In this document: piece after piece, positions 7,727-47,586 of the stretch
Layout of the letters: each line of letters starts with the position of its first letter
Position numbering within the stretch: position 1 is the first letter of the stretch
Source: Octopus vulgaris
Taxonomy: Eukaryota
Direction: 5' to 3'
Length of the DNA: 64,000 bases
Assembly (NCBI GenBank): GCA_951406725.2
Contig: OX597821.1
Location: forward strand, 76,136,001 to 76,200,000
Notes under the pieces: model-generated
Database searches by the model: none
Told to the model about the DNA's origin: nothing
Seen by the model: the letters and a program-made list of their open reading frames with translations, nothing else
Program-made: the position numbers and the translations under genes

Positions 7727-7772
7727 CTAGTAGACCAGCTGGTTTCAGGGTCTCAACCTTCGTCAGTTCTGG
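7727..7772 (-). ncRNA. Degenerate minimal type I hammerhead ribozyme motif (Penelope-type)
   Basis: Minus strand reads CCAGAA CTGACGA AGGTTGAGACCCT GAA ACCAGCTGGT C TACTAG: intact core, perfectly palindromic stem III, GUC triplet, mismatches in stems I and II. Confidence 0.55.
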
Positions 7773-26712: not shown

Positions 26713-27566
26713 TTCTTTTCTACTCTAGGCACATGGCCCGAAATTTTGGGAGAGGGGTGGGCAGTCGATTGGATCGACCCCAGTACGCAACTGGTACTTA
26801 ATTAATCGACTCCGAAAGAATGAAAGGCAAAGTCTACCTCGGCGGAATTTGAACTCAGAACTTAAAGACAGACGAAATACCGCTAAGCATGGGCGTATAA
26901 ATCCCGTTTACACGGGTTTCTTGTCAATATACAATGAAGGCTTATAATTCTTTTTATAAAATAAATAAATGAATATATAAATAATTCTTTCTACTAAAGG
27001 CACAGGGCCAGAAATTTGTGGGAAGAGGCCAGTCGATTACATCGACCCCAGTGTGTAACTGGTACTTAATTTATCGATCCCAAAATGATGAAAGGCAAAG
27101 TCGACCTTGGTGGAATTTCACCTCAGAACTTAAAGACAGACGAAATACCTATTTCTTTACTACCCACAAGGGGCTAAACACAGAGAGGACAAACAAGGAC
27201 AGACAAACGGATTAAGTTGATTATATCGACTCCAGTGCGTAACTGGTACTTATTTAAGCGACCCCAAAAGGATGATGGTCAAAGTCGACCTCGGTGGAAT
27301 TTGAACTCAGAACATAACGGCAGACAAAATACCTATTTCTTTACTACCCACAAGGGGCTACACACAGAGAGGACAAACAAGGACAGACAAACGGATTAAG
27401 TCGATTATATCGACCCCAGTGCGTAACTGGTACTTAATTTATCGACCCCGAAAGGATGAAAGGCAAAGTCGACCTTGGCGGAATTTGAACTCAGAACGTA
27501 ACGGCAGACGAAATACAGCTTCGCATTTCGCCCGGCGTTCTAACGTTTCTGCCAGCTCACCGCCTT
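26713..27566 (-). mobile_element. Family A SINEs: a single copy plus a multimeric copy with internal units of about 184 bp
   Basis: One head at about 27566 followed by repeated B-box/core/tail units (AAATACCTATTTC near 27143 and 27327). Confidence 0.85.
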
Positions 27567-42170: not shown

Positions 42171-42721
42171 TTTCTACTCTAGGCACAAAGCTATAAAAAA
42201 TTTTGGGGGGGAAGGGGGCGCTTAGTTCATCGACCCCGAAAGGATGAAAGGCAAAGTCGACTTCAGCGGAATTTGAACTCAGAACGTAGCGGCAGACGAA
42301 ATACCTATTTCATTACTACCCATAAGGGGCTAAACACAGAGAGGACAAACAAGCACAGACAAAGGGATTAAGTCGATTTTATCGACCCCAGTGCATAACT
42401 GGTACTATTTAATCGACCTCGAAAGGACGAAAGGCAAAGTCGACCTCAGCGAAATTTGAACTCAGAACGTAGCGACGGACGAAATACCTATTTCTTTACT
42501 ATCCACAAGGGGCTAAACACAGAGGGGACAAACAAGGTCAGACAAAGGGATTAAGTCGATTACATCGACCCCAGTGCGTAACTGGTACTTAATTTATCGA
42601 CCCCGAAAGATGAAAGGCAAAGTCGACCTCGGCGGAATTTGAACTCAGAACGTAACGGCAGACGAAATATCGCTAAGCATTTCGTCCAGCGCGCTAACGA
42701 TTCTACTAGTTCGCTGCCTTC

Positions 42722-43904: not shown

Positions 43905-44483
43905 CGGGCTTCTTGCATTTTCCATCTGCCAAATCCATTCATAAGGCTTTGATGAGTCCGAGGCTACAAGTAGCACACAGTTGCCTAAGGTGCCACGCAG
44001 AAGGACTGAACCCGGAACCATGTTGTTGGGAAGCAAGCTTCTTACCACACAGCCATAACGAGAATCATTGAAAGGCTTTGTTTTTATTGATGTTTTATTA
44101 GTTCTCTTTTAACCAATTCCAATTTTTAACCAATTCCAAGGCGTTGAGCTGGCAGTAACATTAGCACGCCGGGTGAAATGCTTATCGTTATTTCATCTGT
44201 CTTTAAGTTCTGAGTTCAAATTCATCCTTTCGAGGTCGATAAATTAAGTACCAGCTATTCACTGTGTCGATATAATCGACTTAATCTGTTTGTCTGTCCT
44301 CTCTGTATTTAGCCCCTTGTAGGTAGTAAAGAAATAGGTATTGCATCTGTCTTTATGTTCTGAATTCAAATTCCGGCGAGGTCGACTTTGCCATTCATCC
44401 TTTCTGGGTTGATAAATGAAGCAGCAGTTGCGTTCTGGGGTCGATCTTATTGACTGGCACCCTCCCCAAAAATTTCGGGCCTT
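42171..44483. mobile_element. SINE cluster: multimeric family A (42171-42720 -), family B (42800-43195 +), A (43270-43623 -), B (43660-44056 -), A (44139-44483 +)
   Basis: Consensus matches to the two SINE families in alternating orientation. Confidence 0.85.
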
Positions 44484-44869
44484 CTATTTCTGTTTCGTTG
44501 AGACGTGTTGATTCCTCTCGCAACATTTTTGTTCACATTTTTAAGATAAATATAACTGGTTGTTTGATCTACGAGAAATAATAACTAAATTTCCCTCAAA
44601 TCATATATTAAAAAAGGTTTATGATATGTCTCATTAACAATGAAGTTTGCTCAACTGGAAAGAAACGTAAGACGATAATGACTGGTATGTCATTAATCAT
44701 TAATCATAAATCGATCAGAAAGAATTTGATCTATCAATAACAATTGTTTGCACTTACATGAGGGCCACTTAGAAATATTGATAGCAACGGAGTATAGACG
44801 AATTCGAAGACCCAATTTATGGTACATATATATATATAACTTAGGTAACTTAGATATATTTCGACCAAT

Positions 44870-45244
44870 GATTGGTCCAGGCCATATCTAACTTAATAGC
44901 ACCACCTGATAGGATTATTTGAATTCTGTTTAAGTCAAGTTTTGTTTATGGTCCATTCAAGTAGTGAGCTTTTGTTGGGTGAGTTGTATCCAATTATGGG
45001 TGGCTTATCTGGTATTCCTTGAAGGAATCTATCCAGACTCCGTTTAAAGTTGATGGGATCCTGTTCCTCTTTGGTCTCTTTTGGGACAATGTTAAATAGG
45101 GCAGGGTCTGTTGAGGAAAAGAAATGATGTTGTAGTGTACATGTAGGCTGTGATCTTGAATTGGGCAGGTGACGTATGGCTCGTGGTACCAGTCTTGGAT
45201 GAACCTTGAAGCTAATGTTCAGGTCGTTTGGGCAAAGTTGGCGG

Positions 45245-45245
<1 letters not shown>
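44870..45245 (-). mobile_element. 3' end of a CR1/L2-group LINE
   Basis: [35 protein letters not shown] matches the P.LFN.LP...FK..LD.FL..IPD.P terminal motif. A related fragment lies at 48136-48410. Confidence 0.65.
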
Positions 45246-45322
<77 letters not shown>

Positions 45323-45353
45323 GTAGGTATGTATGTACGTATGTATATATACG

Positions 45354-45447
<94 letters not shown>

Positions 45448-45597
45448 ACTTATAAATAAGGGCAAACGAAAAAATTTCTAATGCCAAATATGCCGAAAAA
45501 TTGGACATATTGTCCATTTACCATATAATTTTTTCCCCAGTACGCACGCTACTCGAAAGAAATCCGACAGAAATTTCTAAAAAAAACCATTATTACC

Positions 45598-45653
45598 ATA
45601 TCGGACCGATTTCAGGGTTAGTTCAAAAAGAACCCTCCCTTCGTCAGTGATAC
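45598..45653 (-). ncRNA. Minimal type I hammerhead ribozyme motif (copy 1)
   Basis: GTATCA CTGACGA AGGGAGGGTTC TTTTT GAACTAACCCT GAA ATCGGT C CGATAT, with one mismatch at the base of stem I. Confidence 0.7.
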
Positions 45654-46080
45654 ATGTGGCAAAGAAGTAGATGAGATACTTACTCATACCCATGGAAGAA
45701 GCAAACGCTAAGTCATGAGCACAACTAAGTACCCCAAATAAATCCAAAATAGAAATACTACAGCCCGTTCAAGACACGTGCGATTTGGACTGAAGCACTC
45801 ACAGAGTGGGAGAGTCCGGAAGTGAACACTATTAAATTTATATCTAATGCAGGATAAAATTTTTTCGAAAAAAAATTTTTTATCAATGGCCAGCATATTA
45901 AAAAATACCTTTAAAGGTTAAATTATAAACAACTTATAAATAAGGGCAAACGAAAAAATTTCTAATGCCAAATATGCCGAAAAATTGGACATATTGTCCA
46001 TTTACCATATAATTTTTTCCCCAGTACGCACGCTATTCGAAAAAAGGCCAACAGAAATTTCTAAAACATCCATTATTACA

Positions 46081-46136
46081 ATATCAGACCGATTTCAGGG
46101 TTAGTTCAAAAAGAACCCTCCCTTCGTCAGTGATAC
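46081..46136 (-). ncRNA. Minimal type I hammerhead ribozyme motif (copy 2, intact)
   Basis: GTATCA CTGACGA [stem II AGGG..GGTTC/GAACT..CCCT] GAA ATCGGT C TGATAT: 6-bp stem I, self-complementary AUCGGU stem III, canonical GUC. Confidence 0.8.
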
Positions 46137-46321
46137 GTGTGGCAAAGAAGTAGATGAGATACTTACTCATACCCGTAGAAGAAGCATATATATATATATA
46201 TATATGTATATAAATATATATATATGTATGTATATATTTGTATGTATATATATATATATATATGTATGTATACATACATACATACATACATATATGTATA
46301 TATATATATATATATATATAA

Positions 46322-46490
<169 letters not shown>

Positions 46491-46638
46491 TGTATGTATG
46501 TATGTATACATACATATATATATATATATATATACAAATATATACATACATATATATATATTTATATACATATATATATATATATATATGCTTCTTCTAC
46601 GGGTATGAGTAAGTATCTCATCTACTTCTTTGCCACAC

Positions 46639-46816
<178 letters not shown>

Positions 46817-47586
46817 AAAATATATATATATTATCGAAAAAATATTTGCTCATATTGCCGTTGATGTTTCCTACCTTAGCTTTTCTGACGTTGTTCTTCT
46901 GCAGCAGATTTTATAGTTGCAGCTGATGACGACGATAATGATGACGACGATGATGATGATATTATTACTGTTGCTGCGGCTGTTGCTGTTGCTGCTGCTG
47001 TTGTGATTCTTATCAGTTTTATATATATTTGTAAATACTGCTATTTGTTCTTACGAATTGTTCTCGATGGCATTTTTATTGCCGTTAACATTTTCCATTG
47101 TAATCAACATTATCATTATCGCTGTTGTAGTTGTTATTGTTATTGCCATTGGCCATGTACAAGGAAATGTAATGATTACTTTTTCCTTCTTACTTTCTTT
47201 TCTTAACTGTTACTGGCATATAAACCATAATGAGATGGCTGTGTTATTGTGCCTGCTCTATTGCCTATCTGACCCTCTTCTCAACATGATTACGACGTTT
47301 AGATCAAACCTGATAACATGAATTCACGCAGAGTTAATACTTGAGGTATTTAAATATTAATATCACAATTTTTACATTCCCCCCTCTTCTCTCTATATAT
47401 CCTACTTGCATGTTTTCCGATTCTCAATTGACGAAAAAACAAAAAGAAAAACAAAACAAAAACAAAACGATTTGCATGCTGTTGGGTTCATAGGAGTGCA
47501 ATGAAGATTAGAGACACAAAACGTCAGGTGTTCTTATTTTCTGACACCCCAATACAAACGCAGACACATACATCTTGTGTATGGAA

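Follow-up and report, generated by a model that had tools for sequence, protein, structure and literature searches.

A dispersed 483-nt hammerhead repeat of Octopus vulgaris, probably inserted at (TA)n by a Penelope-like enzyme

The non-LTR retrozymes of metazoans, described in coral, mussel and axolotl (PMC7229834), consist of short tandem units that lack coding capacity and contain a single type I hammerhead apiece, with a GC content below 45% and a highly self-paired predicted circle; they coexist with Penelope-like elements (PLEs). The invertebrate units measure about 170–400 nt, and the units are found in long arrays. A preprint (bioRxiv 10.64898/2026.07.22.740005) proposed that retrozymes are derived from PLEs and mobilised by them, with consensus lengths of 51–972 bp; its case is built on co-occurrence and pLTR homology and draws mainly on vertebrates. 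EN+ PLEs of the Neptune/Poseidon type leave partial tandems with an inverted, 5′-truncated arm and a tail restricted to one end (PMC8557442). With purified PLE enzyme, two internal start sites defined this tail and both strands were extended (PMC11167929). The minimal and dimeric hammerheads of PLEs have been described as well (PMC4209133); that paper reports a stable non-palindromic helix III for fungal and protist motifs rather than for metazoan ones. Plant LTR retrozymes carry a type III hammerhead in true LTRs.

The window analysed here is a 64,000-nt stretch of the O. vulgaris genome (contig OX597821.1). It contains, on the minus strand, tandem copies of a non-coding unit with one type I hammerhead each, and this element is a further member of the metazoan non-LTR retrozymes. 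The likeness to those of PMC7229834, which extends to the low GC content (34.6% in the monomer), the self-paired predicted circle and the coexistence with PLEs, rests on sequence and predicted folds. The link to a PLE-associated retrozyme class, drawn in the original prediction for this DNA, has support from family-wide evidence. The unit is longer than those of invertebrate retrozymes (483 nt) and falls inside the range of the preprint. Helix III has 4 bp and the triplet is AUA, whereas metazoan retrozymes have 1–2 bp with a palindromic loop. The sampled copies are dispersed arms of 0.1–2.7 units with PLE-type ends, in contrast to the long arrays of PMC7229834. With EN+ PLEs (PMC8557442, PMC11167929), the family shares the partial tandems, the inverted 5′-truncated arm, the one-end tail, the two internal start sites and the (TA)n target; it differs in having no ORF and no defined 5′ end, and in a tail of about 90 nt instead of 30–40. 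Type I topology and core are common to the PLE hammerheads of PMC4209133, but the 1–2 bp palindromic helix III of dimeric hammerheads, and their paired stem I beside the NUH site, were not found. Unlike plant LTR retrozymes, the family shows a type I hammerhead, circular permutation and variable 5′ ends. Compared with the preprint, our evidence is an insertion footprint, and a homologous pLTR was not found. Our literature search returned no cephalopod retrozyme; the main text of PMC7229834 does not contain the word octopus, and the supplements of that paper and of the preprint could hold cases.

Architecture of the locus

The locus spans window positions 45246–46687. E1 and E2 denote the two 3′ end points of the family.

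45446..46186, minus strand: single-armed insertion, 1.53 units of the 483-nt non-coding monomer
45930..46186, minus strand: upstream repeat A, about 257 bp (alignment bounds 46186–45930), with private substitutions that depart from the family majority
45446..45703, minus strand: downstream repeat B, about 258 bp
46070..46143, minus strand: type I hammerhead A, core intact, core start 46130, predicted cut after AUA at 46082
45586..45660, minus strand: type I hammerhead B, family-typical, core start 45647, predicted cut after AUA at 45599
45599..46081, minus strand: predicted 483-nt monomer between both AUA sites
45828..45835, minus strand: internal copy of E2 (monomer position about 254–257), about 90 nt past E1
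45246..45445: (TA)n tract adjoining the 3′ end, the likely target
46187..46588: degenerate (TA)n tract, itself a mirror, centre 46387/46388
46589..46687, plus strand: inverted copy C of the first ~100 nt of repeat A

The element is a circularly permuted monomer continued for 1.53 turns, not two LTR-like repeats flanking a body. Its 5′ end is truncated at monomer position 384, and its 3′ end coincides with E1. The two direct repeats of about 257 bp and the hammerhead core in each, both anticipated on the minus strand, were recovered. Repeats A and B are identical at 250 of 264 alignment columns, the resulting distance of ~5% being typical for tandems of the family, and CUGACGA, stem II, GAAA and GAAAUCGGUC are present in both. 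The final C of GUC is found at 46087 (A) and 45604 (B), 483 nt apart as predicted. The claimed lack of coding capacity also stands (the longest stop-to-stop frame in the element has 69 aa), as does the embedding in (TA)n, with tracts on both sides. When opened at the GUC positions, the 483-nt unit yielded a predicted circular fold of −123.3 kcal/mol (z −5.0, 60 shuffles) with 65% paired. Inspection of promoter words found neither an A box nor, on the ribozyme strand, a B box; the opposite strand of the element carries one B-box-like word and one ETS word.

Copy C is a third, inverted and truncated motif that the original prediction had passed over, and it lies within a mirror of about 600 bp. 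It has single-base deletions and stops short of the AUA triplet, resulting in an incomplete hammerhead. Because copy C carries the private substitutions of repeat A, it arose after these changes or in assembly; it is either a later fold-back duplication or an assembly artefact. Contigs from sequencing runs did not span the junction of copy C with its TA tract. A twin-primed arm was ruled out for copy C on the basis of the shared private changes, of an end at neither E1 nor E2, and of the 400 bp of mirrored TA in between. The locus is an ordinary copy, and probably a relic rather than an active source.

Other features were noted in the window. A 102-aa frame (44935–45243, minus strand) starts right after the (TA)n tract; it has no Pfam match, and we take it to resemble the end of a LINE RT frame. 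Two related tandem arrays with 183–184-nt units, located at 27031–27516 and 42221–42669, apparently belong to a common short interspersed repeat.

Hammerhead register and predicted cut site

Two registers were compared for the ribozyme. Most likely, helix III of the conserved fold has 4 bp and the cut is predicted to follow AUA. This register lies 5 nt downstream of the GUC register, and its stem I opens with U-A, G-C, G.U, U-A and A-U. Hammerhead B shows the predicted fold in its typical form: helix III AUCG/CGAU with a GUC triloop, a 5-bp stem I, an internal loop and an outer CCA/UGG stem. The AUA triplet satisfies the NUH rule. The predicted cut sites (A17) at 46082 and 45599 are still 483 nt apart. 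Dimerisation is unnecessary on structural grounds in this model, with helix III a stable 4-bp stem.

The original prediction had instead proposed that AUCGGU forms a palindromic helix III, that a dimer of the two motifs cuts after GUC, and that the locus is an active source of the 483-nt RNA. Self-pairing of AUCGGU was reproduced (duplex −4.5 kcal/mol), copy A gives six contiguous stem I pairs in this register, and published metazoan type I hammerheads mostly have a palindromic helix III of 1–2 bp and are dimeric (PMC4209133). In this register helix III is reduced to a single pair with a palindromic loop. Copy A, however, pairs fully only through a minority C-to-T change (37 genome matches vs 550). 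In a comparison of 133 motifs, from which 20 loci selected for the minority T of copy A were removed, 94 of 100 family motifs, among them copy B, had A.C as the first stem I pair of the GUC register. We dropped the idea that the A.C pair of copy B reflects decay, A being present there in 99 of the first 100 matches listed. Because this pair is family-wide, it signals the wrong register. The GUC register also failed in both sister families: GAC replaces GUC in 13 of 17 motifs of the first (of which 3–4 are misassigned family copies), and three stem I positions are paired in 0 of 16 motifs of the second. The constrained folds of copy B gave −10.8 kcal/mol for the GUC register vs −16.7 kcal/mol for the AUA register with an open core. 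For both motifs the lowest-energy fold buries the core (for B, −22.3 kcal/mol vs −16.7 kcal/mol with the core open).

In an alignment of 30 hand-picked motifs (26 distinct) from the family and two sister families, 98.3% of the cells are paired in the AUA register and five of the nine pairs change on both sides, with helix III and the triplet columns partly fixed by the search patterns and stem I as the independent part. The covariation value was 0.53, compared with ≤0.13 for slid controls, and draws on three related families and hence on few independent lineage events. The same measures for the GUC register were 60.9% and 0.13. We thus consider dimeric cleavage after GUC highly improbable, the least likely of the readings discussed here. 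The GUC positions and the self-pairing stem stand as sequence features, but the cleavage site and the dimeric register attached to them are not supported.

The AUA register affects the outlook for the locus itself. Hammerhead A has a C.U at pair 2.2/1.2, the second pair of stem I, and a G.U in helix III, and its constrained fold loses the inner stem I. Mismatches beside a hammerhead cut site slow cleavage. The locus would probably be a poor monomer source, with the downstream motif intact and the upstream one damaged in the AUA register. The 483-nt period is retained, and release of the monomer from this copy is doubtful. Junction RT-PCR cannot demonstrate circles, because genomic tandem copies contain the same junction sequence. 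A search with hammerhead models, recommended as a check, gave no support: an Rfam scan of 44000–47500 returned no hammerhead family at E ≤ 10, and its hits were TA-repeat miRNA noise. Our literature search found nothing usable on an AUA triplet.

Further hammerhead-like motifs occur in the window. Three copies of another repeat (12454, minus; 14008, plus; 16685, minus) carry a minimal motif of a type described for PLE terminal repeats: CUGAUGA, a stem II and GAAA, with a helix III that is short and palindromic. A lone motif at 7766 (minus) has CUGACGA and a short stem II, and its 4-bp helix III ends in GUC.

Family, insertion footprint and RNA template

We searched the genome (2.8 Gb, 227 contigs) for related copies. 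The hammerhead core pattern had 494 exact matches and its reversed control none, so that chance does not explain the pattern. A 20-mer near the 3′ end had 1,389 exact matches, again with 0 for the reversed control. A DNA search with the element gave 3,635 candidates, and the 40 best of these contained 61 matches. The copy and covariation analysis that the original prediction suggested as a check shows many copies, with covariation across the family and two sister families favouring AUA over GUC. The copies are arms of variable length continuing round the unit, up to 2.7 units in the longest seen, and 41 of 164 unique segments are tandem by at least 80 nt. The family has no common 5′ end. Two sister retrozyme families (704 pattern matches together) have a homologous backbone, and one of them has a tandem period of ~495 nt; all their inspected copies (L092 5840–6290; L110 820–1740; L221–L250) show the AUA-type fold. 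Contigs from runs guessed to be RNA carry family pieces, from which strand, ends and circles cannot be read.

The ends of the copies follow a strict pattern. Among 116 segments from 66 loci, which were picked by the 3′ 20-mer independently of the hammerhead, 80 end at E1 (monomer ~163–168) or E2 (~254–257), and TA adjoins 75. Back-to-back pairs were counted over all sampled family loci, with a few duplicates possibly left. Out of 84 pairs, 58 were E1/E2, one was E1/E1, one was E2/E2 and 24 had an unclassified end; the end classes were set wide (150–172 and 228–262), since T/A runs cut alignments short. By analogy with EN+ PLE insertions, the combination of two fixed 3′ ends at (TA)n with scattered 5′ ends and one end per arm is the Penelope 'tail' footprint. 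The inverted arm and the 5′ truncation of PLE-type integration were likewise found. Our literature search returned nothing usable on twin priming in PLEs.

The predicted cut site is crossed by 39 of the 80 segments with canonical ends, and six segments exceed one unit. In none of these 80 does the 5′ end fall within −11 to +17 of the cut site, and starts in monomer positions 1–11 were found in 4 of 245 segments, compared with 5.6 expected. Because inserts cross the cut site with no pile-up there, the cleaved linear monomer is not the template; as read from these ends, the template is a circle or an uncleaved multimer.

The tandem units were examined at 19 loci, namely those of the 41 tandem segments with two full windows. 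Units differ by 5.0% within a locus vs 9.1% between loci, and units of one locus are often sisters in the tree, with rough support. Differences between upstream and downstream units do not recur (29 same-direction vs 33 opposite pairs, permutation p 0.72), in a test that has little power if source loci are many. An apparent excess of shared differences (560 vs 130) was discarded as an artefact of BLAST gap placement, which disappeared in the multiple alignment. The within-locus similarity fits rolling-circle copying of one unit, and it may also stem from template jumps, from copying of an uncleaved multimer or from conversion at a later time.

Single insertions with two units or two arms from different subfamilies were observed at L012, L078 and L053/L114, and suggest template switching between RNAs. 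L012 and L078 are the two of the 19 tandem loci that join units of different subfamilies.

These data bear on the alternative that the same family is mobilised by the same type of enzyme from an uncleaved linear multimer or a template-jumped linear RNA, with circles irrelevant to mobilisation. Read-through of the cut site suits uncleaved RNA equally well, unprocessed RNA was the dominant substrate in vitro (PMC11167929), and the two mixed tandem loci show that template switching or later conversion happens. However, copying of linear tandems would be expected to shorten the arrays each generation, and a 2.7-unit array and arms of up to 889 nt exist. Units of the same locus cluster with no position-specific differences, and the hammerhead stems are maintained by compensatory changes over three families. 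We consider this alternative unlikely, and favour a continuous, probably circular RNA as the template.

Penelope-like partner and proposed mechanism

A young two-ORF PLE with many intact copies is present in the genome (L104 1118–5805 and L091–L108). Its upstream frame of 479 aa, with no clear Pfam match, overlaps a 781-aa RT + GIY-YIG frame, and a degenerate hammerhead-like motif is located ~70–100 nt before the 3′ end. The genome holds many intact 781-aa frames, whose linker has the CxxxxCxxC of the Neptune/Nematis type. Their copies abut (TA)n at two end points separated by 38 nt. No detectable sequence in common was found between these PLEs and the monomer. On analogy, the 781-aa PLE is a plausible mobilising partner. 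A family match beside one such PLE (L042/L092), considered as a pLTR, was rejected: it is a nested sister-family insertion within the TA tract past the PLE end.

We also asked whether an autonomous PLE yet to be found could have left the repeats as solo or partial-tandem pseudo-LTR fragments. An RT/GIY-YIG ORF joined to the repeat, as an autonomous EN+ PLE would have, was found neither in the frames of the element nor at 60 GIY-YIG loci or in 69 free 5′ flanks. Upstream of every copy, the monomer just repeats or ends, and the 69 flanks have only short inverted end pieces and TA in common. The 60 loci, partly overlapping, included no autonomous element with the monomer or its ends. They are a sample of 6,136 first-look candidates, which leaves room for this explanation, and architecture, tail and target agree with EN+ PLEs (PMC8557442). 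A search with the unit profile, however, matched nested sister-family copies only and never a PLE terminus. Such an origin appears very unlikely.

The reading that we regard as probable is that of a dispersed, non-coding 483-nt hammerhead repeat, inserted at (TA)n by the RT and endonuclease of a PLE that copies a continuous, probably circular RNA. Tandem copies would be transcribed, and single, non-dimeric hammerheads would cut after AUA. A host ligase would circularise the monomer. A Penelope-type enzyme would then nick both strands of (TA)n, and cDNA would begin at two internal sites ~90 nt apart and run past one full turn. At the window locus, priming would have occurred at E1 with a halt after 1.53 turns, and the later drift of ~5% between repeats A and B would have damaged the upstream ribozyme. 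A more specific version is possible, and we hold it tentatively, as somewhat short of an even chance: a pair of Penelope-type enzymes would bind a hammerhead-made circle and prime each of the two cut DNA strands from its own fixed site, the sites being ~90 nt apart, rolling beyond one full turn and sometimes switching circles, with an AUA hammerhead competent as a monomer. As counterpoints, hammerhead cleavage was dispensable in vitro for a PLE that mainly used unprocessed RNA (PMC11167929), and one of nine predicted Xenopus dimers cleaved (bioRxiv 10.64898/2026.07.22.740005).

Two results are useful: the correction of the cleavage register, and the rule of one end per arm. Experiments designed around the GUC site, or relying on junction RT-PCR, would give misleading answers, and assuming a short palindromic helix III for animal hammerheads can conceal the real fold. 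Earlier proposals that PLEs mobilise animal retrozymes drew on co-occurrence and homology. The strict E1/E2 rule for arms, which an intact PLE in this genome follows too, is a footprint that is testable with purified enzyme. If the tentative version holds, the AUA hammerhead would differ from the dimeric ones described in animals, and the octopus genome would directly record the rolling-circle retrotransposition of a viroid-like RNA.
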